This document shows, piece by piece, positions 3,329 to 22,624 of a stretch of DNA of 64,000 bases. Both the position numbers and the translations under genes were made by a program. The notes below the pieces were generated by a model. That model ran no database searches and was not told the origin of the DNA. It worked only from the letters and a program-made list of their open reading frames with translations. This stretch comes from a virus (Duplodnaviria; Caudoviricetes), in the IMG/VR virus record IMGVR_UViG_3300042268_000564. One strand, 5' to 3'. Position 1 is the first letter of the stretch, and every line of letters begins with the position of its first letter.

Positions 3329-5395
3329 ATGCCAACTTTCAGGGTATTTGATGTAGATGCTTTGCCATCAACGCAAGATTTATTAAGCGAATCGCTTGTT
3401 AATATAGTTGCTACAACGCCGGGGATAACAGATATTGCGGTTGGCAGTAAGTTGTGGAGTATTTGTTATGCTATTGCTCGTCAAAAAGCGTCGATTTATT
3501 ACACGCTCCATTTTTATAAAAAACAATCTTATGTTATTACAGCGTCGGGCAAATATCTTGACTTGCATGGCATAGAAGTCGGTGTTTTCCGACAGCCTGC
3601 CATTTCTGCAAGAGGGCAAGCAACTTTTTCAAGAACGTCACCGTCAGCTTATAAAATCCTTATCCCATCTGGGACAGTTGTTACAACGCCTGTTCTTAGC
3701 ACTGCGTCTGATGTCAAGAAATTTGTAACCACTGAAGATGTTTTCATTGAAGTCGGTGGGACTACTGCGACTGTTGATGTTGCGGCGGCTGTTGCGGGTG
3801 AAACAGGGAATTTGCCTGCTGGTGCGATTGCAAGAATAGAAGCCCCTATAGCGGGGGTTCAGGCAGTAACGGCTACTTCAACGAGTGGTGGGACTGAGAT
3901 TGAATCTGATGAATCTTTGCGAGAGCGCATTTTGTCTGCGTGGGCTGGCAGGATGTCGGGAACCTCAGACGCAATTCGAGATGCGATTCTATCTGTAACT
4001 GGAATACGAAGTGTTCTTATTATTGACCCTGCAAGAAATAGAGTCAAGCAGTCGCACATGATAAAATCGCTTGCTGGACAACCGATGGTATCTTTGGAAA
4101 CCAAAACGCCACTCGAAGCCAAGTATGATTTATATTCAAGCTTGCAATATGAGGATGATGGTCTAACTTTGAATATTAAGCAGTATGATGATACTGGGAA
4201 TCTTTTGTATGCAGAAAAAGCATCTGCATTGTCGGATGGGATTAGTGTTTTAGCCAAGGTGAATTATCTAAGTAAGAGTGCAATTATAGAGATTTTTTCG
4301 ATTGCACTTGATGATAACCCTTATGATGACCTAAGCCCGGTTGCTACAGACCGTCAGGCAGTATATGTTAGGACACTGAGCGAAGAAGTTAGCAACCAGC
4401 CTGTAACTCTTATTATTGCGAAAGACCCAAGTAACGCCGAGAATAAAAGGCTTGTTGTTTCTACATTTGCACAATTCAGACACAATGAAATACTTGGACA
4501 GACAGAAGTTACGCCATTGGTTGAGGTATTTGATGGATTTCAAACATATTCGGGAATGTGCAATAAAGTAAATGCCGAGTCTAAACTTATCCAGATGGAA
4601 CTTTTGGATGTTAAAGTTGCCACAGAGGAATTAATGCCTACGTGGAATCAGGCATATTCTACGAATACCGTTCAAACTAAATTTAGACCAATTGTTGAGC
4701 TGTTGTCGCCAACAGGGAGTAATTTCGAGGTGCTTGACCAGACTAACGGAATTATAAAAGTCGGGTCTGGGGCAGTGATGTCTGCGATAGAGTTCAGTTA
4801 TAGATACGAGACTGATTTTGGTTCAAGGTCGGTCGAGGAATTGACAATTAATTTGCAAGATGATGGGTCGAGTCTCGTATATGCAATGCCTCTTACTGGT
4901 TATTCTGATGAGTTAATGGAAAATGTTTCTTATTTGACAGAAATTCCTGCTGTTTATACTGAGACAAAAATGGAGCCACATTATGAATTAGTGAGAGGTC
5001 GTATCGACGTGGTGCCTGTGCCTTATGCTCTGCCAATAAGTGATGAGTTAGTAGCGGAGGTGGTTGCGGCGGCAGAAAGAGTTAAGCCTGCTGGCGTAGA
5101 GCTTTATATCCAGTCGCCAAGCGTTCAATATATCGATGTTTCTGTGGTAATAGAAGTGGAAACTAAGAATGACGCTATATTGCCATCTCAATTTTACGAG
5201 ACAATTAGAACCAATATTACGAATTACATAAATCAGCTCGACATGGGCGAGGCGGCTTATGTTGAAAGAATTATTGCTGCGGCGAATCCTGATATCGAGG
5301 GTTTAAAAGTGGCTCATGTTTTGAGTCCAGAAAATGATATATCACCTGCGCCATTAACATTCTTGCGAGCAGGCACTATTGAGTTTGTGGAGTAA
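3329..5395 (+). CDS. Baseplate J-like protein with a large internal insertion
   Basis: TASGKYLDLHG..R.PA..ARG, IPSGTVV, GETGNLPAGAI, GGTEIESDESLRERI and a C-terminal KPAGV...GTIEF. About 320 extra residues lie between the conserved halves. Confidence 0.9.
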   Translation: MPTFRVFDVDALPSTQDLLSESLVNIVATTPGITDIAVGSKLWSICYAIARQKASIYYTLHFYKKQSYVITASGKYLDLHGIEVGVFRQPAISARGQATFSRTSPSAYKILIPSGTVVTTPVLSTASDVKKFVTTEDVFIEVGGTTATVDVAAAVAGETGNLPAGAIARIEAPIAGVQAVTATSTSGGTEIESDESLRERILSAWAGRMSGTSDAIRDAILSVTGIRSVLIIDPARNRVKQSHMIKSLAGQPMVSLETKTPLEAKYDLYSSLQYEDDGLTLNIKQYDDTGNLLYAEKASALSDGISVLAKVNYLSKSAIIEIFSIALDDNPYDDLSPVATDRQAVYVRTLSEEVSNQPVTLIIAKDPSNAENKRLVVSTFAQFRHNEILGQTEVTPLVEVFDGFQTYSGMCNKVNAESKLIQMELLDVKVATEELMPTWNQAYSTNTVQTKFRPIVELLSPTGSNFEVLDQTNGIIKVGSGAVMSAIEFSYRYETDFGSRSVEELTINLQDDGSSLVYAMPLTGYSDELMENVSYLTEIPAVYTETKMEPHYELVRGRIDVVPVPYALPISDELVAEVVAAAERVKPAGVELYIQSPSVQYIDVSVVIEVETKNDAILPSQFYETIRTNITNYINQLDMGEAAYVERIIAAANPDIEGLKVAHVLSPENDISPAPLTFLRAGTIEFVE

Positions 5396-5398
5396 ATA

Positions 5399-7753
5399 AT
5401 GCTAACACCACAACAAATACTTGAGAAAATGTTGGAATGTGTTGCGTCTTTCGACGGGGCGCATACTGAAGAGTCTTTAGACCGAGCGATATTAAGAGCT
5501 GAGGCTAATTCTCTTTTTAGAATCCTGAGAGTTATTGAAGAAAGTTCAGGGCAGAGATTTGCAGTAACTGCGTCGGGGAAATATCTTGACCTTATCGGGC
5601 AAAGCATGTCACGGCCTAGATACGCTGGTGAATCTGATGATGATTATCGTGCGAGACTTGTGTTTAATGAGCGATTCTGGAATGATGTCACCGTAGCAGG
5701 CATCAAGGAAATGATAAAAAATTACTATGGTATCGACCTTGATAATGATGAATATGAAGAAACTAGACTTGTAGAGCTGTATCGTTCAGCCGCAGCCTTC
5801 CTTAGCGATGAAGAAGAGTGTGAAATAAAGCCTTGGGGTGAATTTGGTGCAGAATGGTTGGGTGCCAATACATTGCCCGGTGCGTTTGAAGTGCATTTGA
5901 GATGTTTTCAAGACGGCGAAGAAAAGCTCATTAAGAAACGCCATGTAAAAGAAAAGCTTATGCAGGTGCGAGCCGCAGGTATTGTGGTTTTGCTTTATTT
6001 TCATATAAGTTTTGGTGCCGACGCTATGATGCCGCCAGAAGGTGGGATAAGCGAGCTTGAATTAATTCAAAAAGAGACAGTGCCAATCCCTGAAGTTGAC
6101 CATGAATTCGAAGTCGAGATAACGAATAACGAGATTTCGTCTATTGTTGAGAGTGCTACTGATAAATTAAGAGGTTTAGTGTCTCGTAGAATTGTTCATA
6201 TCGACCAGAAAAATAAATGTCGTCCTGATTATCAGGAAGAATTTAATAGAATCACGACACCTCTTGAAATGGCGAAGTTTAATGCAGGGGAAGGTATGAG
6301 ACGTGCTGAACCTTTCAGATTTCGACAAAGTCGTTTAAGAAATTCTTGCTGGCGTTTTTATTATGGGACGAAATATGAAGAAATGGATATCACTGCCGCT
6401 TCTTTAACTCTGTCATTGGCATGGAATAAGCCTTCTACTTTCTATCCTCAGCAATATAAGGTTTATTATGATGAGGGGGGCAAAACGCTTGACGGGACAG
6501 GCTTATATTTAAACGGTGAAAGAGTAGACTCCCCTTTTACTGTTTCTGCTGCGATGCTTCAAGACCAAGACCAGCCAGCAATAGTTTTAACAAATGCCTC
6601 TTTGTCGGGGCTTTATTATTTTGAGATTGCTGCGATTATGCCGAATGGTGACGAACTGAAGCCATTGAATTCAGCATATTCTACATATAATGCAGGGATT
6701 CACACTTATTACACAAGACCGAATCCTATGGTAGATGCAACGCATCATTATCGTGGGGATGATACCTACGGGGTAGATTTTTATTCATTGATGGAATATT
6801 GTAATTTCTGGTGGCGTGTTTCATCTGTAGAGAATGGAACAGTATCAGCTACCTCATTGCCTTGGAAATTAACCGTTTACAAGACACAGGAGCCTATCAG
6901 TAGATTCTGGTGGCGTGTAACAACTGTCGATGGACAGGTCTTGAGCGCACCTTCAAAAGCGGCATTATTAAAGCTTGTCGGACAATCGAATATGGCGGAA
7001 CCCTCTCGTCAGGATTTGATGCAGGTTGTAAGGTGGGGTGCGTATGCCAATAACATAAATTTGCCCTCAATTGCTCAGTCGGATTCACAGTTGACGATAA
7101 TGGAGAGATTTGATTCAAGTTACAATAACTTTTCCAGATTGGATATTTTGTCCCTGAAAACAAGTAGGACACCAGCCCGATTGATTTTAGCGAAATTGCC
7201 AGTTTGTGGTGCAAGACAAGATGACCCAATACTGCAACAAATAGATGCCGCTGATAAAGGCGTCGCCGTTGCTGGTTACATTCCTTTTAATTGGCAGTCT
7301 GTGTTTGTTAAAGATAAGTTCCGTCAGCTTATGGATAAAATAGTCTCGGCAGGATATGACGGTGTTTTGCTTGACGGGCTGTGGTTAAATGATGTTTTTG
7401 GCGATGAAATATCAGCCGTGGAATTGGTTAAAGAGATAATTAATTACTTCAGGGTGATTAAATCGAAGCCATTGTTTTATGTTCTAATAAGAGGGCAGGA
7501 ACATTGGGTGGCACATTATGACCTGTTTAATTCATTGTCGGGGGTTCTTTCCGAGAATCTATTTTATGTTGGTGATGTTGAACAGCCAGCGGCAGTTACG
7601 CAAGATAAAGTGGGGTATTTGAATGTGTTTCACACAAATGGAAAAAGAGTGTTTGTGATTGATTATGTAGTGGATTCAGGGTTGCAGATTCTGTTCAAAC
7701 AAAAATGCGCAGCTCTTGGCTACGCATCTTTTATTACTGGTCAGAATTGGTAA
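5399..7753 (+). CDS. Baseplate wedge protein fused to an Fn3-like region and a C-terminal GH114/TM1410-like TIM-barrel domain
   Basis: N-term TASGKYLDLIG..RYAGESDDDYRARL..VRAAGI. Middle LSLAW..YKVYY..YYFEIAA plus two FWWRV hairpins. C-term GYDGVLLD..GVLSENLFY..GKRVFVIDY. Confidence 0.7.
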   Translation: MLTPQQILEKMLECVASFDGAHTEESLDRAILRAEANSLFRILRVIEESSGQRFAVTASGKYLDLIGQSMSRPRYAGESDDDYRARLVFNERFWNDVTVAGIKEMIKNYYGIDLDNDEYEETRLVELYRSAAAFLSDEEECEIKPWGEFGAEWLGANTLPGAFEVHLRCFQDGEEKLIKKRHVKEKLMQVRAAGIVVLLYFHISFGADAMMPPEGGISELELIQKETVPIPEVDHEFEVEITNNEISSIVESATDKLRGLVSRRIVHIDQKNKCRPDYQEEFNRITTPLEMAKFNAGEGMRRAEPFRFRQSRLRNSCWRFYYGTKYEEMDITAASLTLSLAWNKPSTFYPQQYKVYYDEGGKTLDGTGLYLNGERVDSPFTVSAAMLQDQDQPAIVLTNASLSGLYYFEIAAIMPNGDELKPLNSAYSTYNAGIHTYYTRPNPMVDATHHYRGDDTYGVDFYSLMEYCNFWWRVSSVENGTVSATSLPWKLTVYKTQEPISRFWWRVTTVDGQVLSAPSKAALLKLVGQSNMAEPSRQDLMQVVRWGAYANNINLPSIAQSDSQLTIMERFDSSYNNFSRLDILSLKTSRTPARLILAKLPVCGARQDDPILQQIDAADKGVAVAGYIPFNWQSVFVKDKFRQLMDKIVSAGYDGVLLDGLWLNDVFGDEISAVELVKEIINYFRVIKSKPLFYVLIRGQEHWVAHYDLFNSLSGVLSENLFYVGDVEQPAAVTQDKVGYLNVFHTNGKRVFVIDYVVDSGLQILFKQKCAALGYASFITGQNW

Positions 7754-7831
7754 TTAACGACCGAAGTTCTGTCTTTCTTCAACTTCTCGCTCACCGTTAA
7801 TGCGAGCTGCTGCACTGCCACCGTTTTCAAG

Positions 7832-8059
7832 TCACACTTCGTAGTCGGCTTCAGCCTTAGCTTCCCAGTAGAGGTCTGCTGGATACCAGAAAGAAAGGTC
7901 TATCATGCCAGTTTCAGCTACTTTATTTTCGAGCCAAACAGCCTGTTTCAAAGTAAGAGGTTTATGAATATATATTAAAATGTCGCCATCTACTTCAACA
8001 TACACATTGGTATTGTCCCTGCTAACGCTTGTTATAGGTCTCATCGCGGCTACGTTCAT
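7832..8059 (-). CDS. Small early-type hypothetical protein, possibly prematurely terminated (the frame continues to 7754)
   Basis: AAGGAG RBS and a TTGACA/TATAAT promoter upstream. An in-frame 25-codon continuation follows the TGA. Confidence 0.65.
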   Translation of the reverse strand: MNVAAMRPITSVSRDNTNVYVEVDGDILIYIHKPLTLKQAVWLENKVAETGMIDLSFWYPADLYWEAKAEADYEV

Positions 8060-8122
8060 ATTCGGTCTCCTTTGTTTTTTTCTTTATACTCTTATTATAA
8101 TCAAATATAAAAAAGTGTCAAG
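8060..8122 (-). promoter_or_regulatory. Sigma70-type promoter plus conserved leader/RBS cassette (copy 1)
   Basis: On the minus strand: TTGACA (8121-8116), 16 nt, TATAAT (8099-8094), then AAGAGTATAAAGA...ACAAAGGAGACCGAAT-ATG. Close match to 61781-61844. Confidence 0.85.
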
Positions 8123-8182
8123 TGTTTTTGAAAAAAAGTGATGCCCTCTACCATGTAAAGTATTTGAGAAATGGAGGGCATT

Positions 8183-8977
8183 ATGTTCAACTTGGATAAC
8201 AGTGTTCATTCTTACATGTATGGTTTTTTTAGTGCTGATGGTAATTTGTATGAAATGTCGAGAAATAGGGGTAGATTTTCGATTGAATTGTCTGTTGTTG
8301 ATGTAGAAATTTTGGAAAGATTCAAGGTGGTGTTGGAGGGAATTGGTTATACAGTTAGTCTAACGAGTCGGACTCGGAACACTAATTTTAAAAAAAATTA
8401 TTGTAGTAGCGTTTTGAGATTACATTCGTTTGATTTTCGTCAATGTTTGAAAAGATTGGGATATATTGCAGGAAACAAAGCAGGCATGTCGCTACCGGCG
8501 GGAGATTATTCTATAAGGGATTATCTGAGAGGGTATTTTGACGCTAATGGGTCGGTTGGTTTTACAGCCAAAGGCTTTCCTTTTATTTGTCTCGGCACGC
8601 CAAATGAAAATGTTGCGAATCTATGGAAGGAGTATGCTGGTAAAATTACTGGCTATTATAGCTCTGTTAAAAGAAACGCAAGGGATGGTTACTACAATAT
8701 TATGTTTAACAAAGAACGGGCGCAAGAGGTAATAAAAAATCTTTATACAGAGGATTGTATTTGTCTCAGACGAAAGAAGATTGTTGCTGAACAGGTTTTG
8801 TTGTGGCAACGTCCCGACAATATGCGCAAACACGTTCGGCAGGTTTGGGAAGCGTGGGAAGATGATTATGTATTGTCGCATTCCATAAAAGATAGTGTTG
8901 AAAAATTACAGAGGTCGTATTCGAGTATTGTATCAAGACGTGGAGTTTTAAAAAAGCTGAATAAAGTATTAGGTTAG
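8183..8977 (+). mobile_element. Free-standing double-motif LAGLIDADG homing endonuclease with a C-terminal helical (Myb/HTH-like) extension
   Basis: Motifs YMYGFFSADGNL and YLRGYFDANGSV; C-term WEAWEDDYVL..LQRSYSSIVSRR. GGAGG RBS favours the ATG at 8183. Confidence 0.85.
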
Positions 8978-8999
8978 AAACCTTTTGGAGGCTATTCCG

Positions 9000-9875
9000 A
9001 TGATAAAAATAAATCCCGCAAAAGCGATTTTAATTCCTGTTGGCATGGATGACCAGATTGTCTCTGGCATTCAATTTGTTGTTGACCCGAACGGTAATAA
9101 TTTAACCGTTACACCGGGCAGGGTTCGTATAAATTCACTTTATATGGACATGGCGATAGCAATTGAAACCAATTTATCTGCGGCACCTACAGGTGTGAGT
9201 TTGATGGCATTAACACAGAGCCTGAATTTGACTTTTATTGATGATAACAATTTTTCAGACAAGTTGGTTATTGGTGTTATCGATAAAAAACCTTCACTCA
9301 CTCTTATAACGCCTGTAGTTTATACTGAGTCGTCTATTGGGACTCAGGTGCCGCCAAGCAGTATCGTTGATGTTTTTGACCCAAGCATTAGTGCTGACAT
9401 CCAAATAAGGATGTTGTTTGACGAATTGGCAATCAATAAGACAAAGGACGCTGACCTTAAATATGAAGAAATGCTTGAAGCACTTCCTGTTGAATACAAC
9501 GCCGTATTCAAAGAAACTTTTGCTAATACGGTAAATTTTGTTGACAACACATTGACTTACAATGCTTATACCAGAACGATGTCGTTGGGTATTATCCCAC
9601 CTTATCCTACAGATATGCGTGTTTTGACTGAGAAAGTTGTTCTCTCAAATTCAATCAGTAAAGCGTATATTTCAGTTGATAAAATCAATAATGACCAGAC
9701 TTGCAATATTCGTCTTTCTTTTGACAATGGTGCAACTTGGGTGCCTTATGTAGAAGAAGGTGAATATATGGCAGGTGCAGGTGCTGATTTCATGATTGAA
9801 ATTTCTATGCGAACTGCAAATAGAAATGTTACCCCACTCCTCCGTTCTTGGGCAGTATTTTATCAGCAACTTTAA
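9000..9875 (+). CDS. Putative virion structural (tail/baseplate) protein
   Basis: GGAGG RBS; LTVTPGRVRING N-terminus and LSFDNGATW...TPLLRSWAV C-terminal beta-sandwich pattern; tail-gene context. Confidence 0.6.
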   Translation: MIKINPAKAILIPVGMDDQIVSGIQFVVDPNGNNLTVTPGRVRINSLYMDMAIAIETNLSAAPTGVSLMALTQSLNLTFIDDNNFSDKLVIGVIDKKPSLTLITPVVYTESSIGTQVPPSSIVDVFDPSISADIQIRMLFDELAINKTKDADLKYEEMLEALPVEYNAVFKETFANTVNFVDNTLTYNAYTRTMSLGIIPPYPTDMRVLTEKVVLSNSISKAYISVDKINNDQTCNIRLSFDNGATWVPYVEEGEYMAGAGADFMIEISMRTANRNVTPLLRSWAVFYQQL

Positions 9876-9896
9876 TTGAAGGGACGGTGAAATGGC

Positions 9897-11480
9897 ATGG
9901 CTGACAGTTTTACGCTAAAGGATAGTTTAGCTACCAGAAAGTATGAGATTACAAATGTAGTCAGGATACTTCAACCGCTGACAGAGTCGTCGCTTGGCGT
10001 ATTGTTGTCTGTAGAAGACGCTCGTGCCATTTTAAGTGACAGGCTTGCTGCTTTGTCCGGTCAGGTTGATGTAAATACTCTTGATATTGCACAAATTACT
10101 GACAGGCTTTTGGAAGCAGTTAATGTACTTACAGGAAACAATTTTTCTATCGCCGATTTAAGGGATGGCACTCTTCCTGTGTCAGCAGTATTGGATGCGA
10201 TTCAATCTGTGACCAAAGACAAAAAGTTGGTTATCTATCCTCGTTTTGAACTTGGAAATATCGCTGGTCAAGCTACTGGCAGCATCATTTTAACACCTGA
10301 AGAATTGGCCAAATATGATTCTTTAAGTTGGGCTGATGAACAATATGGGGGGCTTGATGCCCCCTATAATGTCGCTATTCCAACATTGGCGTCATTGGCT
10401 TATTCAGATGAGACTGCTGTTGATTTGTTGTATGCAGACAAGACCCCTGTTTTTAATGATGACAATGACAGGTTGCTTGGTTTTGTTTCTGGATTTACTG
10501 GCGGGAATGTAATTAATATTACTTGGGGTAAAATGATTGCAGGGAGTTTTGTGCCAGAAGCTATCCCTGCATCAGTAACTGACGAGGTTACTGCCATTGT
10601 GCCGATGAAGACCAATTTGTCGGTTTTGCCAGTGACAAGCCTGTCTTTGACGAAGCTAGATAATTTTGGCGTTAATCAGCAAGATGAGCTTGAAAATGTT
10701 CAGTTGGTTTTGGCAAATAATGGTTTAACTACTTCGACAGAGCTTGGTGGGGTTTTGGGGCTTGCAAATGTTACGGTAACTGATTTTCTTTCTGCGACTG
10801 CTTCTGCATTATTCCCCACAGGGTTTAATAATGTTATTTCTGCTATTTCTGCGATTGTTGTTCAGTTGCAGAATATTTTGGCACAACAAGCATCAACGGA
10901 AGATGTTTGGCCGTATGTGGGGCAAGTAGAAGAAGATGCCTTGGTCAGTGCTGTGCATGGAATACTTATGTCGCTCACAGATAATTATACGGCTGCTCTT
11001 GTTGATTCGTTCAGGACAGATGAGAATCTTTATGTTGGTGCTGATAAAGCCGATGTAGATATAAAGAAGTCTGTCTTAAAGCATGGCGATGAAGGCATGT
11101 TAAAGACTTATTATTTGCAGCAAGTGAATGATGATGTTGCTGGCAAAACAAGTGTTATTTTTAAGATTCAGCTTTCAGAGCCAGAGGTTGGCAACCAAGA
11201 CTATGAAATAGGTGCCATTTTGGAGATTAAGGGGGGACGATATGGCACAGGAGTTTCATATAATCTAGTGCAATTTACTTCCCCTTTGCCGTCTCAGACT
11301 GAATTGCAGGAATTGGTAGAATATGACCTCACAGCATTGCCTCATAACCCTATGGGTGACACTCCATTAGACCCTATTGTTGACGTTGGCGAAACTATGT
11401 GGTTAAGGCTTGTTATTAAGATGGACTCTGCGGGTGTAGAATTTACTCCTATTATTAGAAATTATCAACTTTTTGTGTGA
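9897..11480 (+). CDS. Putative virion structural protein
   Basis: 527 aa acidic protein; its C-terminal TPIIRNYQL resembles the TPLLRSW end of the upstream gene; tail context. Confidence 0.55.
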   Translation: MADSFTLKDSLATRKYEITNVVRILQPLTESSLGVLLSVEDARAILSDRLAALSGQVDVNTLDIAQITDRLLEAVNVLTGNNFSIADLRDGTLPVSAVLDAIQSVTKDKKLVIYPRFELGNIAGQATGSIILTPEELAKYDSLSWADEQYGGLDAPYNVAIPTLASLAYSDETAVDLLYADKTPVFNDDNDRLLGFVSGFTGGNVINITWGKMIAGSFVPEAIPASVTDEVTAIVPMKTNLSVLPVTSLSLTKLDNFGVNQQDELENVQLVLANNGLTTSTELGGVLGLANVTVTDFLSATASALFPTGFNNVISAISAIVVQLQNILAQQASTEDVWPYVGQVEEDALVSAVHGILMSLTDNYTAALVDSFRTDENLYVGADKADVDIKKSVLKHGDEGMLKTYYLQQVNDDVAGKTSVIFKIQLSEPEVGNQDYEIGAILEIKGGRYGTGVSYNLVQFTSPLPSQTELQELVEYDLTALPHNPMGDTPLDPIVDVGETMWLRLVIKMDSAGVEFTPIIRNYQLFV

Positions 11481-11490
11481 GGGAACTGCG

Positions 11491-11955
11491 ATGTCGCCGA
11501 CTAAGAAAACAACAAGAGATGAAATAACAGCCCTTGTGGGTAAAATTTTACAGCAACATAATCAAGTTGAGCGCAATCGTATTTTAGAAATGTTACTTGA
11601 ACTCGATAGAGACAAGACGCAAGCTCGGCTCGAAATGGAAATTCTTAAAAATGAACTTAATCAGGCGATTCATAGTCTTGAGATGCGCAGGACGAGTCAG
11701 GTGGATGATAAACAAAAAGATTGTCAGGAAACGATGCGAGAGAGATTTGCCGTCATAGATAGTAATATAGAAAGGATGCGTCCTAACTATATCGCAGTAT
11801 TAGGGCTTTTATTTTCTGTGTTATTGCCTTTTTTGGGCTGGGTTTATTCCATTCAGGCGGCTGTATGGGAGACTAAGGTTTCTGTTGCGAGTGTACGACA
11901 AGAGGTTACAGAGATTAAAGATAAGGCAAGGCTGTTGAAAAAGGACGATAAATAA
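11491..11955 (+). CDS. Coiled-coil membrane protein with one C-proximal TM helix (holin/XhlA-like architecture)
   Basis: Charged heptad N-terminus, hydrophobic YIAVLGLLFSVLLPFLGWVYSI, basic C-terminus. Confidence 0.55.
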   Translation: MSPTKKTTRDEITALVGKILQQHNQVERNRILEMLLELDRDKTQARLEMEILKNELNQAIHSLEMRRTSQVDDKQKDCQETMRERFAVIDSNIERMRPNYIAVLGLLFSVLLPFLGWVYSIQAAVWETKVSVASVRQEVTEIKDKARLLKKDDK

Positions 11956-11969
11956 GCGGGTGATTTAAT

Positions 11970-12473
11970 ATGTGGAAGTTGTTTCAACATGATAAAAGAG
12001 AGCTTGACGACATGGGCTTTCGTTTCGCAAGACGAGTGCTTGCGGGGAAAAAGATTGTTATTGCTGACGACCACGGCAGCACTCTAAAGTGGCTTAAATA
12101 TACGCTTGAAGCATATTTTGCAGAAGTGTTTGTGTTTAAGCATGGGCAAGAAACGATTGACTTTCTCCAGAAAGCTAATAATGATAACGTGCCAGCAGAT
12201 GCGTTGATTTTAGATATTCACATGAACTCTATTGGTGGGTTGGAAATAGCGAGATTTAATTCAACTATGGCTCACCCTGCTTTTGCAATGTTTTTAACTG
12301 GTTGTAGGGAAGATAGTGAGGAGTATAAAAAGGCTGAAACAATGTCTGTCGTTTTACAAAAGCCTGTCGATATGGAAAAGATTCTGCAAGTGCTTTTGCA
12401 TGGCTTAGTCTCAGATTTTGATTTAGAGTATGAAGCATATGCAGAAGAACAAAAAAAAGCGTCTGTTGCCTAA
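11970..12473 (+). CDS. Single-domain response regulator (CheY-like receiver)
   Basis: IVIADDH acidic pocket, LILDIHM phospho-acceptor Asp, GGLE, FLTG and QKP motifs; no output domain. Confidence 0.9.
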   Translation: MWKLFQHDKRELDDMGFRFARRVLAGKKIVIADDHGSTLKWLKYTLEAYFAEVFVFKHGQETIDFLQKANNDNVPADALILDIHMNSIGGLEIARFNSTMAHPAFAMFLTGCREDSEEYKKAETMSVVLQKPVDMEKILQVLLHGLVSDFDLEYEAYAEEQKKASVA

Positions 12474-13617
12474 GCTAAAGGTGCAGAAAAACAAGAGTCA
12501 AAGAAAAGTGCCTGATGATATTTTAAGCCTGTTGTGCGATGGCTTCTCTCTTAATATTCTGATAGCAGAGCCAAATGGGAATATTTTGTATAAAAGTAAG
12601 CAGGTTGGGCAATTAGGATTTAAAGGCTCTTTATATCAAGATATAGACGAGTCGTGTGTTCCAGTTATTAGAGCTTGTATGGAGGGTTTGACTCACATGG
12701 ATGAGTGTGTGGGCAAGCTTAATTTAATGCTTGATGACGAACTTATAACACATGAGGCACAGTTTCTAAAACGAAATGGACTGGTTTATATTTTTCTCAA
12801 GCCAAAAGCTTTCAAAGAAGCTATTTCGTCAGAAACAATCCAAGAAAAGTTAGCGTCAATGATTCGTCTTTCTAATGGCATCGCCCATAATTTAAGAAGC
12901 CCGTTAATGACATTGATGAATATTGCAGATTACATGTCACTTTTTCTTAATAAGTGGCATGAGATGTATAATCATGACCATAAAAATTGTCCTTTTTTGA
13001 TTAAGCAGGCTGAGATGAATAGTATTTTGTTGCAAATGCAAGAGGATATGATGTCAAATATCGTAATGATGTCTGATATTATTAATTCTTTGAAAATCTA
13101 TGGCAAGACTGACCGTTTGAATGAATATCAGACGATTGATATTGTTGATTTGATTGGTAATGTTTCAAAGATGGTTGAATACAATGCTAAAGTAGAAGTA
13201 GAGATAAAAATTAAGTGCAACCTGAGAGGCAACAGGCAGTTGTATTGTATTCCCTCGGACATGCAGGTCGTATTTGTTAATTTATTTGAAAATGCGATAG
13301 ACCAAATTCAAACTAGCCGTAAAGATGGGATTATAGAGATAACGGTTACTCATCACAAAGATTCTATTCAGATAAAAATGCGAGATAATGGCGGGGGGAT
13401 TCCTAAAGACCTTTTAACTACGAACCAACTTTTTGAGCCTTTTGCCACGAAAAAGATTGGTGGCACAGGATTGGGACTTCACTCTTGTTTTAAAATTATT
13501 AAAGAGCATAGAGGTAATATTTACGCAAGAAATCATAAGGCAAAAATGGGCGCAGGTGCAGAATTTTTGATTGTATTGCCGATAGATTGGAGACGTCATA
13601 ATGATAGGGTTAGATAG
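12430..13617 (+). CDS. Soluble sensor histidine kinase (HisKA + HATPase_c) with a short PAS-like N-terminus
   Basis: H-box GIAHNLRSPL, N-box NLFENAIDQ, DNGGGIP, FEPFATKK, GGTGLGL; no obvious TM helix. Confidence 0.93.
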   Translation: MKHMQKNKKKRLLPKLKVQKNKSQRKVPDDILSLLCDGFSLNILIAEPNGNILYKSKQVGQLGFKGSLYQDIDESCVPVIRACMEGLTHMDECVGKLNLMLDDELITHEAQFLKRNGLVYIFLKPKAFKEAISSETIQEKLASMIRLSNGIAHNLRSPLMTLMNIADYMSLFLNKWHEMYNHDHKNCPFLIKQAEMNSILLQMQEDMMSNIVMMSDIINSLKIYGKTDRLNEYQTIDIVDLIGNVSKMVEYNAKVEVEIKIKCNLRGNRQLYCIPSDMQVVFVNLFENAIDQIQTSRKDGIIEITVTHHKDSIQIKMRDNGGGIPKDLLTTNQLFEPFATKKIGGTGLGLHSCFKIIKEHRGNIYARNHKAKMGAGAEFLIVLPIDWRRHNDRVR

Positions 13618-16600
13618 TGGACAACCGCTGGTTTTTGATTTTGTCACACAACAAGATTTGCCACAAGAAATAGGCAGGTTCCCGTCTTGCACGTCTCTTA
13701 ATGGTGAGTATTGTATTGTTGGTTATGGTGAAAATTTACCTCATGTTATCGCTCAAAATGCCGTTGGGGCTTGGGTGAATAATTATTATGAACAGACAGA
13801 CCATTCTACTTATACAGTTAAAGAGCAGTTACGCTTTAAGTGCAAGGGACGATTAAAGAGAGATAGTCTGGCGTCAATTGTGAAATGGCGAGTAAGATTG
13901 TTGAAGCAGGGGGTGCCTACGGGTATCTCAAAAGCTGGGGAATTTCAAGGACTTAACAGTGCGTCAAGTTTTGATATAAGCACTTATTTATGGTACCCGC
14001 AAACCTTTATTTTTAATAGTGTGAGATTGGATAATGGCGCGAATTATTCAGCGCAAATAAAATTTGAAGAATGGGTTGGGAGTTCTAAAATTGGCGAAAC
14101 GATTTGGTTTTCAACCGGGCACACAGTCAAGATAGCGATTAAAGCACCATCATTGTCTGTTGCATTAGGGCAGCCGATATATACGAATAATCCTACTTTA
14201 AGAGTCGAAGGAATTATTCACGGGAATTATCCTTATGTTGGCATGAGGAAAGACCTTGCATACGGCACGGGCGCTGCGGGGGCTGTTTTTTCTGCAAATG
14301 GTTCTGATTTGGATATAACCATCCCGACATCTGATAGAAAATATGGATTTGATATCAGCAGCTATGGAAACAAAAAGATGCGCATTGCTATAGCGGCAAA
14401 AGACGCTTATGGCAATGTTATGACACGTCCTGCAATAAGAGATGTTTGTTTTGATTTCGAGGCTCCTGCATTGTCATGGTCTGATGTAACACAAAGCGGG
14501 AGCGTCCTCACAGTAGAAGTAAAAGCAACAGATGTGTGGTCGGGCGTGGATGCGGCAACATGTGTGGCAAAGAATGTGTCTCATGGCGTTACGAAAGCGG
14601 CTACTTTTTTGGGACAAGATACTTATACTGTCGACATTCCTGTGATAGAAGGGCAGAACGTTATAACTTTTACTGCTGCCGACAGAGCAGGCAACTCAAG
14701 AACTATTGACAGGATTGTGCTGATAGACACTACAAAGCCCACAGTTGTTTGCAAAGAGGTCGTAGGAAAAGATAGCGCAAATGCCACGAAGACGTTGAGT
14801 TTTGTAGATGGGATGCGGGTATATGGCAATTCAATTACGGCGAGGTTTCTTGCTCAAGATGCAACTACGGGGCTGCAAGAAGTTATACTGGCACATAATG
14901 GTATGATTTATGGTTTTGATTATCAAGGTGAGCAGGCAGTTGTGTGCGAGCAAGTGTTTACTTTGATTGAGGGCAACAATGTAATTGCTTGGCAGGCAAC
15001 GGATAAACAAGGAAATGTAAATAATGGCGAGTCCGTTATAAGATATGCGCCATACAATGCAGGTGGTCCTGCCCTGACTGTTGTGTCACCAATTTTTAAC
15101 TCTTGGCAAACGAATGGTTGTTTGTGTGAAGGAACTGTGAATGATGCTGACGGCGTTGATGGTGTTAGGGTTGATGTGGCGTTAAATGACGGCGGCTTGC
15201 CTTATAAATCTTTTCTTACAACTGTAACGGGAAATTCTTGGTCTTGCGAGATGAATAATCTTGTCGATGGGACAGCTTATTTAACTATTGTTGCAAAGGA
15301 TTTAAAAGGTGTAGAGAATTCGTTGAAGCATAAAATAAGGGTTGATAATGTTTCGCCGGAGGTTACGGTTGTAGGAACTGTGCCATCAATGACAAATCAA
15401 AGTAATTTTTCTTTGAAAACGTATGCAGAGGAGCCAACTTCTTATCTTTCTAACTACAAATTGATTGTTAATGGGGTTGAAAAGGTGAATCATGTTTTTC
15501 AAGGAACCACTCAGTCGAACAAATTACAACCTCGAACAGATGTCGTAGCATTGAGCCAAGGTACAAATACGATTTCTGTTGTATATACCGATGCTACAGG
15601 GAATCAAGGACAAAAAGATTTTAGTATTGAACGAGTTAATCTAGCTGTAAATATTTCGGTTACGCCATCTGAAGGGACTCATATCTCTGAGCAGATGTTT
15701 GATTTTGTTGTGGCTGCTACAAGCCAAGAGCAGATTCAGCAGGTTCTCGTAGATTACTTGCCAAATAAGACCTCTGAACAGGCAAGAATAGACGGGGCTG
15801 GCTTTTATCGACTTGCGGCATCTACGATTAATTCAGTTTTGTGGCAAAATTCTTTTATGTTGAGTGCCGGTACGCCGTGTATAAATGTTGCAGGAAGTTA
15901 TGGCTCGCGAGTTTTGAGCGAACATTTTCCAGTTGCAAATTATACGATGAGGATAACTGCGGTTACTGCACTTGGGAATACTGAAGCTTTTTTTGGATAC
16001 ACAATGGATACAGCAGCAGATTTGCCAAGAGTAATTTCTATTACTCCGGCGGATGGCGCAAGTGGCGTATCGGCAAGCGTGCCAATAAAGATTGTATTTT
16101 CAAAGCCAATGAATACGACAGTTGCCTTACAGTTCATTTCTATTAATCCTCAACCACAAGGTGAATGGTATTGGTCTCAGGGGAATACAGTGGCGGAATT
16201 TATTCATACTCAGACATTTCAGAGCAATGTAGTTTACATCGAAGTAAATAGTGCCGCTAAGGATATTTACTCAAGGAATTTGGTGACAAGCTATTTTTCA
16301 AGTTTTTCTGTGAACCAACTTCCATTTGTAGAAAGTGTCTTGCCAAGTAATGGGGCGGGGTTGGATTCTGTGGTAGAGGTGAGATTTTCAACAAGGATGC
16401 TTTTAACATCGTTAGATTTTGTGGGCTTAAAGACAGTTAGCGGCGCATCTATTAATTGCGATTATTCTAATTTCGAGGATAATGGGAAAACAGTTTTAAG
16501 GCTTCGTCCGCAGGTTTTATTAACATATTCAACCAATTACATAGTGACCGTGCCAAGTTCTGTCACAAGCGTTTATGGACAGAATATCTCTGAACATCGG

Positions 16601-17239
16601 CATAGTTTTACAACAAGAATGGCAGGCAGTGTAACTGAGATGCAGGGGGCAACGGTTTTATTGCTGCCGGGGCTTAATGGTGTTTCTTTGCCGATGGAAA
16701 ATGCTGAGATTTATGATGAAAAAACATTGAGAAGTTATATTGATAAACAATTGGGGACAGGCAGCACTGGAACTATTTTCAGATATGACACACAATTAAA
16801 GAAGTGGACTGCAAAAATAGGGAATACATCTGGCAAAACATTTCTTTTTGGCGAGTCTGTTGTAGTGGCGATGAATATTGACACAGCAAAAACTGTGAGA
16901 TTTATTGGTTCTGCTCATCCAAATGGAAAAAATATTGTCATATCTGCTGGGTTGAATTGTATCAGCTTGCCAAGACAGGTTCAGGGATTGAATAGAGTCA
17001 AGGATATGGCAGCTCATATTGCAAGCCAGCTAGGGCTTAGTCAGTTGCCAGTATATTTAATTCGTAAAAAAGCTGGAAGCAGTAGCAAGATGGCAGTTGG
17101 CTATGCATACAGACTCCCTGTGACTCATGAGGGATTGTATTTGGAGACTGCTGATGAAGATATAAGAGGTGACGCTATTATTATTGTTTCGCCAAAATCT
17201 GGGTTTGTAAAGTTTAGTGGAGATTCATGGGAAAACTAA
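13601..17239 (+). CDS. Large multi-Ig-domain virion protein (tandem bacterial Ig-like domains, Big_5-like domains, two C-terminal GLNxxSLP repeats)
   Basis: Repeated D..P...A.D..SG...G.N...A.D..GN units; PADGASGV..IKIVFSKPM; LLPGLNGVSLP and ISAGLNCISLP. Confidence 0.75.
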   Translation: MIGLDSGQPLVFDFVTQQDLPQEIGRFPSCTSLNGEYCIVGYGENLPHVIAQNAVGAWVNNYYEQTDHSTYTVKEQLRFKCKGRLKRDSLASIVKWRVRLLKQGVPTGISKAGEFQGLNSASSFDISTYLWYPQTFIFNSVRLDNGANYSAQIKFEEWVGSSKIGETIWFSTGHTVKIAIKAPSLSVALGQPIYTNNPTLRVEGIIHGNYPYVGMRKDLAYGTGAAGAVFSANGSDLDITIPTSDRKYGFDISSYGNKKMRIAIAAKDAYGNVMTRPAIRDVCFDFEAPALSWSDVTQSGSVLTVEVKATDVWSGVDAATCVAKNVSHGVTKAATFLGQDTYTVDIPVIEGQNVITFTAADRAGNSRTIDRIVLIDTTKPTVVCKEVVGKDSANATKTLSFVDGMRVYGNSITARFLAQDATTGLQEVILAHNGMIYGFDYQGEQAVVCEQVFTLIEGNNVIAWQATDKQGNVNNGESVIRYAPYNAGGPALTVVSPIFNSWQTNGCLCEGTVNDADGVDGVRVDVALNDGGLPYKSFLTTVTGNSWSCEMNNLVDGTAYLTIVAKDLKGVENSLKHKIRVDNVSPEVTVVGTVPSMTNQSNFSLKTYAEEPTSYLSNYKLIVNGVEKVNHVFQGTTQSNKLQPRTDVVALSQGTNTISVVYTDATGNQGQKDFSIERVNLAVNISVTPSEGTHISEQMFDFVVAATSQEQIQQVLVDYLPNKTSEQARIDGAGFYRLAASTINSVLWQNSFMLSAGTPCINVAGSYGSRVLSEHFPVANYTMRITAVTALGNTEAFFGYTMDTAADLPRVISITPADGASGVSASVPIKIVFSKPMNTTVALQFISINPQPQGEWYWSQGNTVAEFIHTQTFQSNVVYIEVNSAAKDIYSRNLVTSYFSSFSVNQLPFVESVLPSNGAGLDSVVEVRFSTRMLLTSLDFVGLKTVSGASINCDYSNFEDNGKTVLRLRPQVLLTYSTNYIVTVPSSVTSVYGQNISEHRHSFTTRMAGSVTEMQGATVLLLPGLNGVSLPMENAEIYDEKTLRSYIDKQLGTGSTGTIFRYDTQLKKWTAKIGNTSGKTFLFGESVVVAMNIDTAKTVRFIGSAHPNGKNIVISAGLNCISLPRQVQGLNRVKDMAAHIASQLGLSQLPVYLIRKKAGSSSKMAVGYAYRLPVTHEGLYLETADEDIRGDAIIIVSPKSGFVKFSGDSWEN

Positions 17240-17249
17240 GGGGGATGGC

Positions 17250-18059
17250 ATGGCAACGTCAGTTAAAGATTTTGTAATACAAGGTTACGTATATCAGGGC
17301 GGAAGTAAGATTCTTAACGGGTTTGTTCGATTAAGAAATACTAATTTGCCAGATGTTATAACTGTTGCAAGGATTGGTGTAATGAATGATGGCACCAGTA
17401 ATCCGCCAGTTACGGATGGCATTTATGACGCATGGTGGTCGTCTCTTGGAAATCCGAGCGCGCCAGATGTCGCCAGAGTCGGCGACATTTTTGAGGTCTC
17501 TGTTTACGAACTTGATTCTGTCGCTGACATTAATCTTCCAGTGGAACTTTTAATGGAGCCAGTTGGCACTTTGGATGCCCCGATAATTCCTGCATTTAAT
17601 ATTTCAGCAGTTACTCAAGCCCATATTGACGCTGGCATGATGATTTATGATGTGTATGCTGCGGCGAATTCACTTCCTCAAGCTGTTACAATCGTGCCTG
17701 AAGATTTAGAAAATGGGTATAATTTGCGCTTTACAAATAATTCAACTGTCAAATGGGTGTGGACGATTCCGGCAGATAATGAGAACCAGCCCATTCATTT
17801 TAAAGTTGAATGGAGTAAAGACCCATCATTCCCGTCTACACCGGGAGTGGTTGGCGTTGCAACAACTTTGCCTACAGACCCTACAAGAACATTGTTTAAG
17901 TATGAATACAATCCTAATGTGTTTGGCGCATTTCCAAGCACGGGTGTTGAGAATCGGACTGGCTGGCGATGCATGTTGCAAATGAATTTGGGAAGCAGCT
18001 TGTCAAATGATGGGGAATATTATTGGCGAGTAAGTGCTACCGATGGCACAACTACTTGA
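17250..18059 (+). CDS. Structural protein: N-terminal beta-sandwich plus a C-terminal Fn3/Ig-like domain ending at YYWRVSATDG
   Basis: N-domain is paralogous to 18638-18988; C-domain is paralogous to domains in 21136, 28244, 29925 and 30927. Confidence 0.6.
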   Translation: MATSVKDFVIQGYVYQGGSKILNGFVRLRNTNLPDVITVARIGVMNDGTSNPPVTDGIYDAWWSSLGNPSAPDVARVGDIFEVSVYELDSVADINLPVELLMEPVGTLDAPIIPAFNISAVTQAHIDAGMMIYDVYAAANSLPQAVTIVPEDLENGYNLRFTNNSTVKWVWTIPADNENQPIHFKVEWSKDPSFPSTPGVVGVATTLPTDPTRTLFKYEYNPNVFGAFPSTGVENRTGWRCMLQMNLGSSLSNDGEYYWRVSATDGTTT

Positions 18060-22597: not shown

Positions 22598-22624
22598 GCA
22601 GGACAGTTGAGCGTCCTGCTTTTT
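22598..22624 (+). terminator. Rho-independent terminator
   Basis: GCAGGAC-8 nt loop-GTCCTGC followed by TTTTT. Confidence 0.7.

Follow-up and report, generated by a model that had tools for sequence, protein, structure and literature searches.

A conserved histidine kinase-receiver pair among the baseplate and fibre genes of a lineage of jumbo phages

Two-component systems are the sensory devices that bacteria typically use. Among described systems, those nearest in fold and logic to the one reported here are ThkA-TrrA of Thermotoga maritima (3a0r) and HK853-RR468 (3dge), in which a class I kinase likewise lies beside a stand-alone receiver, the kinase being made up of a PAS domain, a dimerization and histidine phosphotransfer (DHp) domain and a catalytic, ATP-binding (CA) domain, or of the latter two. 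The nearest by sequence are kinases of the NtrB/ZraS/AtoS type (HPK4). To our knowledge, most of the two-component genes noted in phages so far are accessory, occur in a scattered manner and look like genes of the host. Here we report a histidine kinase and a receiver that are encoded, together with a small membrane protein, at positions 11491-13617 of a 64,000-nucleotide stretch of viral DNA (hereafter the window; Duplodnaviria, Caudoviricetes, IMG/VR record IMGVR_UViG_3300042268_000564). The window spans bases 223068-287067 of a 393,839-bp record that CheckV rates as complete, and, given this record and the gene content around the pair, its source is a jumbo phage and the pair lies in its baseplate and fibre region. 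The kinase-receiver pair is fixed and vertically inherited in the virion block of a whole jumbo-phage lineage; purifying selection on it is strong, and it lacks close relatives among cellular proteins. The three genes are closely packed on the plus strand, with the following features:

11491-11955, plus strand: single-pass membrane protein of 154 amino acids (aa), with a long N-terminal helical part and a short, charged C-terminal tail
11970-12473, plus strand: stand-alone receiver, 167 aa; codon of the phospho-acceptor D82 at 12213-12215
12430-13617, plus strand: soluble histidine kinase of up to 395 aa, with an ambiguous start (ATG 12430, ATG 12439 or GTG 12508)
12511-12804, plus strand: predicted PAS-like domain, kinase residues 28-125 (fold model)
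12886-12888, plus strand: codon of H153, in the DHp domain, whose helices span kinase residues 135-180 and 189-226 (fold model and alignment)
12979-12993, plus strand: DHp hairpin-tip motif H184-K-N-C187-P188, in the loop (residues 181-188) between the two DHp helices
13129-13581, plus strand: CA domain, kinase residues 234-384

The model of the phage kinase matched ThkA (3a0r) over its full length with an e-value of 1.3e-15, and HK853 with an e-value of about 1e-13. However, identity to ThkA-TrrA and HK853-RR468 is 18-22%, and the phage pair differs from both in its longer DHp helices with a [H/C]-x2-3-C tip, its H-N-L-R/K-S-P box, the extra N- and C-terminal helices of its receiver, and the placement of its genes in a virion operon beside a membrane protein. 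Kinases of the NtrB/ZraS/AtoS type give the best sequence matches (ZraS, 9jfj, e-value 5e-17; NCBIfam models AtoS, 100.7 bits, and ZraS, 99.2 bits), yet these scores lie far under the equivalog cut-offs (646 bits for AtoS and 479 for ZraS); in contrast to these proteins, the phage kinase has neither a transmembrane (TM) segment nor a periplasmic sensor, has Asn rather than Glu after the His, and has a partner that is not of the NtrC type. Detocs (DtcA kinase, DtcB buffer receiver and DtcC receiver-effector) shares with the phage pair the two-component logic and an output-less stand-alone receiver, but it is host-encoded rather than phage-encoded, and the phage has no receiver-effector and a single receiver in its genome. 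Identity with Detocs or another known defence module was rejected, as none of the three proteins matched a PADLOC model. CpdR and RssB are likewise stand-alone or receiver-led proteins that act by contact, and ClpP and a ClpX-like ATPase are both encoded by the phage; however, the scores of the phage receiver against both families are far under the cut-offs, and it has no PP2C-like domain of the RssB kind. Bacterial-type sensory genes borne by phages include the agr genes, with an AgrC kinase, of the Clostridioides phage phiCDHM1 (PMC3901668) and VqmA of vibriophage VP882. Such cassettes are accessory parts of temperate phages and are similar to quorum-sensing genes of the host, unlike the present pair, which has no close cellular relative and is fixed in a jumbo-phage baseplate and fibre block. 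In the literature, which is incompletely searchable, no kinase-receiver pair was found to be described from the baseplate or fibre operon of a phage; a survey of jumbo phages (PMC7824862) treats just a divergent receiver that is in no case linked to kinases.

The receiver matched PF00072 with 38.6 bits (cut-off 30.2), and with 39.3 bits in a scan of the whole genome. D33, D34, D82, T110 and K131-P132 are invariant in all 9 receiver sequences compared, which comprise that of the window and eight orthologues. The AlphaFold2 model (predicted local distance difference test score, pLDDT, 91.6) has a (beta-alpha)5 core with the catalytic residues at the ends of b1, b3, b4 and b5, and two extra helices, one N-terminal (residues 14-24) and one C-terminal (150-166). 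A Foldseek search with this model returned receivers, with TM-scores of 0.75-0.84 by target; the top matches were nearly tied and the RssB receiver ranked second. The best NCBIfam match was CpdR (e-value 1.9e-8, 34.3 bits against a cut-off of 180), with RssB lower (21.8 against 329). No DNA-binding domain was found in the receiver. Thus the preliminary description of this locus, which was made from the sequence without database searches, was right in recognizing a stand-alone receiver with all catalytic positions and without DNA-binding output. Since it is the sole receiver encoded in the genome, where only one kinase of this kind was found as well, and since it has no such output, the receiver must act by contact.

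The kinase matched HATPase_c with 68.9 bits (cut-off 26.4), and H153, the asparagines N284/N288 of the N box and the DNGGGI, LFEPF and GTGLGLH motifs (G1, F and G2 boxes) are the same in all 13 sequences of the family. The H box aligns with that of ZraS, and H153 falls within the first hairpin helix of the model (residues 135-180). Judged by their sequences, the two proteins form a complete kinase-receiver pair with all phospho-acceptor residues and ATP-binding boxes, as had first been proposed. The H box itself, which had been taken as intact along with the others, is atypical: it reads H-N-L-[R/K]-S-P throughout the 13 sequences, with Asn at H+1, Ser at H+4 and no acid after the His. Neither the window kinase nor the family members P0002-P0013 matched Pfam HisKA (PF00512), and the motif H-[E/D]-x-x-[T/N]-P is absent. 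We therefore file the protein outside HisKA, as an atypical class I subfamily related to the HisKA kinases. According to one study of HisKA kinases, the acid after the His is required for autokinase activity and Thr or Asn at H+4 for phosphatase activity (PMC3510030). An Asn after the His also occurs naturally in cellular kinases, in about 10 of 107 sampled, most of which belong to one family. The atypical H box and the Cys/His hairpin tip described below pose small, testable questions of kinase mechanism.

N-terminal to the DHp hairpin, residues 28-125 were modelled as a PAS-like domain (pLDDT about 85), with helices at 29-38, 57-60 and 77-86 and strands at 43-46, 51-55, 92-101, 104-115 and 118-125, and the best full-length fold matches were kinases of the PAS/LOV-DHp-CA architecture, namely YF1 (4gcz), ThkA (3a0r) and VicK (4i5s). 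No Pfam PAS profile matched this region, and no ligand residues were recognized in it. On account of the model and of these fold matches, the kinase is predicted to carry a cytoplasmic N-terminal PAS-like sensor. Thus, the absence of a TM sensor that was originally noted holds, in that hydropathy revealed no TM segment in the kinase or the receiver and a hydrophobic helix in the 11491 product only, but the kinase would not be without a sensor. Mean pairwise identity across the family is 0.23 in the PAS-like domain as against 0.51-0.61 in the DHp and 0.56 in the CA domain; the sensor is therefore the fastest-evolving part of the kinase, and its input may differ among the phages or track the host.

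What had been described as a His/Cys-rich insert in the DHp region is really the tip of a long DHp hairpin. W176 and C187 are invariant, the first ligand position is His or Cys, and nothing else in the tip is conserved except P188, so that the conserved elements reduce to W176 and [H/C]-x2-3-C-P. Among the 13 members the tip takes the form HxxC in 6 (including the window), CxxC in 5 and Cx3C in 2, and is followed by Pro in 11. This exchange of His and Cys at the first position would fit metal ligation better than a disulfide.

The start of the kinase bears on its reported 44-bp overlap with the receiver gene, which applies only if ATG 12430 is used. This start would add a Lys-rich leader of 26 residues (12430-12507) that is seen in no relative, and GTG 12508, preceded by AAGAG, yields an N-terminus that matches those of the relatives. 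The frame of the leader overlaps the C-terminal helix of the receiver, and the leader may be untranslated. The 17-bp overlap of the kinase with the next gene is real, and an overlap of 4-17 bp at this junction is kept in the window and six relatives.

To gauge how widely this arrangement is conserved, we compared 12 independent contexts, namely the window and the relatives L005, L006/L007, L008, L009/L010, L011, L092, L093, L094, L099, L100 and L012. The order membrane protein, receiver, kinase and giant Ig-like protein is the same in 12 of 12 assemblies, and lies 3' of a Baseplate_J gene wherever the contig reaches that far; in the window the latter is the gp6-like wedge gene at 3329-5395, 5' of the pair (phrog_6, e-value 1e-50). 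The full order runs from Baseplate_J through a baseplate protein of about 800 aa, a protein of about 296 aa and one or two variable proteins to the membrane protein and onward to the Ig-like (Big_5) protein, which is followed by an fn3 protein in the more distant relatives and by a protein of about 270 aa in those nearer to the window. Two long contigs found by means of the 296-aa protein stop just short of the pair, and contigs from the same samples start with the missing genes. The suggested search for a conserved membrane protein-receiver-kinase triplet thus succeeded in every related assembly that reaches this position, and no insertions were seen between the membrane-protein gene and the Ig-like gene. 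A single gene order in 12 independent assemblies rules out a chimeric assembly.

A search of 5.8 billion proteins returned 12 clusters of the kinase, with 40-57% identity and e-values of 1e-69 to 1e-116; the next kinases after these are generic and come at 1e-22. A metagenome scan with the kinase family added two members, L012 and L013, among 80 generic kinases, and the IMG/VR scan gave the window's own record only. The receiver family comprises 22 clusters at e-values of 1e-47 or better, with nothing further down to 1e-8, and had no match in 185,579 species-representative genomes of bacteria and archaea. DNA and protein searches of 50,697 phage records turned up no relatives of the Ig-like protein, and for the kinase none that exceeded about 30% identity. 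Across the relatives, identity to the window declines together for three of the proteins, being 70/48/47% for Baseplate_J, 63/43/44% for the receiver and 53/42/43% for the kinase. In the closest pair of relatives, the ratio of nonsynonymous to synonymous substitution rates (dN/dS) amounts to 0.083 (membrane protein), 0.088 (receiver) and 0.028 (kinase). The e-value gaps to cellular proteins and a divergence that parallels that of the baseplate proteins rule out recent capture from a host. Thus, of the circumstances that were named at the outset as speaking against the pair, neither absence from relatives nor a nearly identical host locus nor a chimera was encountered. Given the synteny, the parallel divergence, the low dN/dS and the absence from the cellular genomes searched, the pair is old, vertically inherited and selected, and is confined to this phage lineage in the collections searched.

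The best-labelled match among the phage records is a "sasA" gene of Microcystis phage MaAM05 (MW495066.1, 222815-237561; L101). It sits among gatA, aspS, coaE, rnhC, hppA and sigE, surroundings that resemble a bacterial chromosome more than a phage, and for its position among gatA, aspS and hppA we rejected it as a comparable case of a virion operon.

The pair is embedded in a run of plus-strand genes that begins 3' of the baseplate wedge genes, the remaining members and flanking elements of which are as follows:

8962-8970, plus strand: TAAAGTATT, candidate promoter-type motif, 15 nt 5' of the first gene of the inferred unit
8985-9875, plus strand: conserved protein of about 296 aa, first gene of the inferred unit, following two baseplate wedge genes; the true start may be Met6
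9897-11480, plus strand: variable 527-aa protein, probably a receptor-binding protein or spike; relatives conserve parts of it only
13601-17239, plus strand: giant Ig-like (Big_5) protein, 1212 aa, probably a fibre or decoration protein; Big_5 match of 54.2 bits
17217-18059, plus strand: 280-aa protein, with which the inferred unit ends; in L009, L092, L093 and L012 the Ig-like gene is followed by orthologues of 264-270 aa
18060-18068, plus strand: next copy of TAAAGTATT, at the start of the following unit; same placement in L009 (14925) and L093 (6589)

Between 8985 and 18059 the genes are a few bases apart or overlapping. Sigma-70 promoter-like sites in the scanned block did not exceed those in shuffled sequences, and no strong terminator was found within the unit. 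The window holds four exact plus-strand copies of TAAAGTATT (8156, 8962, 18060 and 58967), each just 5' of a start codon, of which only those at 8962 and 18060 fall in the region of the unit. Genome-wide, 17 of 21 exact copies lie at most 80 nt 5' of the start of an open reading frame (ORF), as against about 9% of random positions. The motif also precedes the orthologue of the 296-aa gene in L009 and L095, and in the form AAAATATT in the more distant relatives L005, L008 and L094. It is a strong candidate promoter, or start-associated element, of the phage. From the tight spacing and overlaps, the absence of internal promoter or terminator signals and the restriction of the motif to 8962 and 18060, we infer a single co-transcribed unit at 8962-18059, comprising the genes for the 296-aa protein, the variable 527-aa protein, the membrane protein, the receiver, the kinase, the 1212-aa Ig-like protein and the 280-aa protein. 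This agrees with the earlier placement of the pair in a tail operon, in that it lies inside the virion (baseplate and fibre) block and is probably transcribed with it. The top-ranked plus-strand hairpin, at 22598-22619, is symmetric and GC-rich with T runs on both strands, and resembles the first strong terminator 3' of the fibre block.

In light of these observations, it is highly probable that the pair is a genuine phosphorelay of the phage, conserved and produced along with the virion genes. Transfer of phosphate from H153 to D82 is to be expected because the phospho-acceptors are conserved, the ATP boxes are invariant and both docking surfaces are nearly so: the DHp a1 segment after the His (N154, L155, S157, P158, L159, M160, L162, I165, D167 and M169) and receiver a1 (L39, W41, L42, L46, E47 and Y49) are the most conserved parts of the two proteins, and it is these surfaces that meet in solved kinase-receiver complexes. 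We propose that the pair would be made late, from one transcription unit with the distal baseplate and fibre proteins, and that the soluble kinase, with its PAS-like sensor, long DHp hairpin and GHKL ATPase, would dimerize, the [His/Cys]-x2-3-Cys tips of both hairpins probably sharing a metal such as zinc. The fast-evolving PAS domain would read a cytoplasmic cue, leading to autophosphorylation of H153 and passage of the phosphate to D82 of the receiver, which would in turn contact a protein partner, probably via the two additional helices particular to this lineage and via the a4-b5-a5 face. Either the phospho-receiver or the kinase may then act on the single-pass membrane protein encoded upstream, forming a three-part switch by which a late event at the membrane, such as lysis timing or the blocking of further infection, would be tied to the condition of the infected cell. 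The membrane protein is preferred as the target because it is the only other gene never separated from the pair; on its own, this identification is tentative and somewhat doubtful. The explanation as a whole, that is, a lineage-specific phosphotransfer module inherited vertically with the baseplate genes, made late and directed at the membrane protein, we consider rather likely. It would imply that, late in infection, the virus itself gauges something within the cell and responds to it by a route other than a direct change of transcription. If an output were found, be it lysis timing, phage exclusion, proteolysis or host signalling, this would be a new kind of decision circuit in the biology of lytic phages, and the three genes also offer a compact, orthogonal signalling module for study.

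Several points weigh against this explanation. The H box has Ser at H+4 and no acidic residue after the His, and the kinase goes unmatched by Pfam HisKA; the kinase monomer was modelled with low confidence around the DHp domain; for the membrane protein there is neither a family match nor an endolysin nearby, leaving adjacency as the ground for a role in lysis; and this protein evolves faster than the pair, with 20-52% identity to the window.

The membrane protein has one hydrophobic helix (residues 101-119, hydropathy score KD19 2.21) and a Lys/Asp-rich tail. Its ATG at 11491 is preceded by a GAGGGA ribosome-binding site and aligns with the N-termini of the relatives, and in alignment A4 the residues Q25, L32, D39, T43, C78, P98, Y100, A102 and W117 are invariant. 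As more basic residues precede the TM helix, the N-terminal helical part is probably cytoplasmic, with the short tail on the far side. In all 12 contexts the gene lies immediately 5' of the receiver gene. Only 12 representatives were returned when 1.84 billion proteins were searched exhaustively with its profile, and no match was found in Pfam, PHROG, NCBIfam or PADLOC. The preliminary description had called this protein holin-like on the strength of its single TM helix. Its small size, one TM helix and charged C-terminus fit holins but are not specific to them; among 9 members the single match to Phage_holin_2_3 had an e-value of 0.074, which is at chance level. No endolysin or spanin gene adjoins it, the neighbours being fibre genes and the kinase-receiver pair, and Phage_lysozyme, Amidase_2 and SLT were not found genome-wide in a search confined to these three endolysin families, by which no lysis cassette was located. 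With neither a family match nor a neighbouring endolysin, identity as a holin finds no support. A complex prediction combining a kinase dimer (residues 27-395), the receiver and residues 1-95 of the membrane protein scored 0.00, and is counted neither for nor against an interaction.

As an alternative to the proposed switch, the receiver could serve to hijack host signalling, its own kinase/phosphatase charging or discharging it, by acting in the manner of CheY on host proteins or draining phosphate from host or defensive relays; in a variant of this, the pair, being made with virion proteins, could be packaged and ejected at entry. A stand-alone receiver as the output, genes set among those of virion proteins and a fast-evolving PAS input (23% identity), as expected of a host-facing part, would all suit such a role, and stand-alone receivers that buffer phosphate are known from Detocs (bioRxiv 10.1101/2023.01.24.525353). 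However, no protein of the pair matches PADLOC or Detocs models, the receiver family is distant from every cellular receiver so that host mimicry is not evident, and a mere phosphate sink would need no conserved ATP-binding kinase of its own. Hence, we regard hijacking as unlikely.

The strict position of the pair between the variable receptor-binding gene and the giant Ig-like gene in 12 of 12 contexts could also be taken to mean that the receiver or kinase binds a neighbouring structural protein or chaperone and so gates the attachment or modification of fibres, as an assembly checkpoint. The overlap of 4-17 bp between kinase stop and fibre start in the window and six relatives suggests translational coupling, in keeping with this idea. 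On the other hand, the fibre genes differ widely in domains and in length (872-2067 aa) against a constant pair, and assembly has no obvious need of a cytoplasmic PAS sensor. No precedent is known to us for the control of tail assembly by a phosphorelay. A checkpoint of this kind is, in our view, a slightly poorer candidate still than the hijacking of host signalling.

The pair might instead be an old passenger, or moron, that occupies a permissive spot near the receptor-binding genes and has a function unrelated to its neighbours. The region does tolerate insertions, with LAGLIDADG, RtcB, TnpB with GmrSD, and four reverse-strand genes found in different phages, but these differ from one relative to another, in contrast to the pair and its membrane partner, which keep their place, are never lost and diverge along with the baseplate; moreover, the insertions spare the interval from the membrane-protein gene to the Ig-like gene. 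We therefore consider a passenger improbable. Much the same small chance can be given to a kinase that works mainly as a phosphatase or scaffold for want of the catalytic acid beside the His. The Asn at H+1 in 13 of 13 sequences is what would be expected, the acid being needed for kinase but not for phosphatase activity in four HisKA proteins (PMC3510030). Against this, all ATP-binding boxes are invariant and the dN/dS of the kinase is 0.028, implying selected use of ATP, the residue at H+4 is Ser and not the Thr or Asn required for phosphatase activity, the genome encodes no other kinase to charge the receiver, and some cellular kinases have H-N as well.

Least probable, and in our estimation very unlikely, is that the receiver, flipped by the late-made kinase, docks on ClpX as CpdR and RssB do and serves as a phospho-switched adaptor for the phage's own ClpXP. 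It would then toggle the degradation of a set of phage or host proteins at the early-to-late transition, which, if true, would amount to a virus-encoded, signal-controlled programme of proteolysis: its best NCBIfam matches are CpdR and then RssB, the RssB receiver is second by fold, the phage encodes ClpP and a ClpX-like ATPase and no other output of the receiver is visible, but the scores (34 against 180 bits for CpdR and 22 against 329 for RssB) and the nearly tied fold matches point to generic likeness, and the clp genes lie 70-88 kb from the pair. The ClpP gene (266 bits) lies outside the window at G000:C1:305404-305931 (plus strand), and the ClpX-like ATPase of 419 aa (L098:382-1641, minus strand), which matches AAA_2 and ClpB_D2-small and has a weak 16.7-bit zinc-finger match, is about 157 kb from ClpP.

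Besides the three-part switch proposed above, several features of the surrounding block are of note. Every long ORF of the window lies on the plus strand. The Baseplate_J gene is followed by a second baseplate gene (5399-7753) and, 3' of it, by a LAGLIDADG endonuclease gene (8171-8977); farther 3' there are genes for a DnaE-type polymerase and a helicase, and SbcCD-like genes. The family of the 296-aa protein comprises 19 clusters with 40-66% identity, all from this phage lineage. This protein has no Pfam or PHROG match, and its sole structural neighbours are weak matches to phage tail proteins; an IMG/VR scan with the family gave the window's own record only, and a metagenome scan gave nothing. 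At the position of the 527-aa gene, L008 and L005 have genes with Pectinesterase or Beta_helix matches. The gene that follows the kinase encodes a Big_5 protein of 872-2067 aa in 10 of 10 relatives annotated with Pfam, and a 1205-aa ORF in L012, which was outside the Pfam scan. Near relatives share the first 600 or so residues of the Ig-like protein with the window, and three of the four distant ones match only its last 450-520 or so residues, the fourth, L005, matching residues 375-738; this suggests that the middle and ends of the protein may be swapped as modules. An insertion hot spot lies between the second baseplate gene and the 296-aa gene, at 7754-8984 in the window, 4621-6551 in L009, 2170-4230 in L006 and 2651-5372 in L099. 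Its cargo consists of the LAGLIDADG endonuclease in the window, RtcB and two small reverse-strand genes in L009, TnpB (OrfB_IS605) and GmrSD_N in L006, and four reverse-strand genes in L099, and in the other relatives the same gap measures merely about 100-150 bp.

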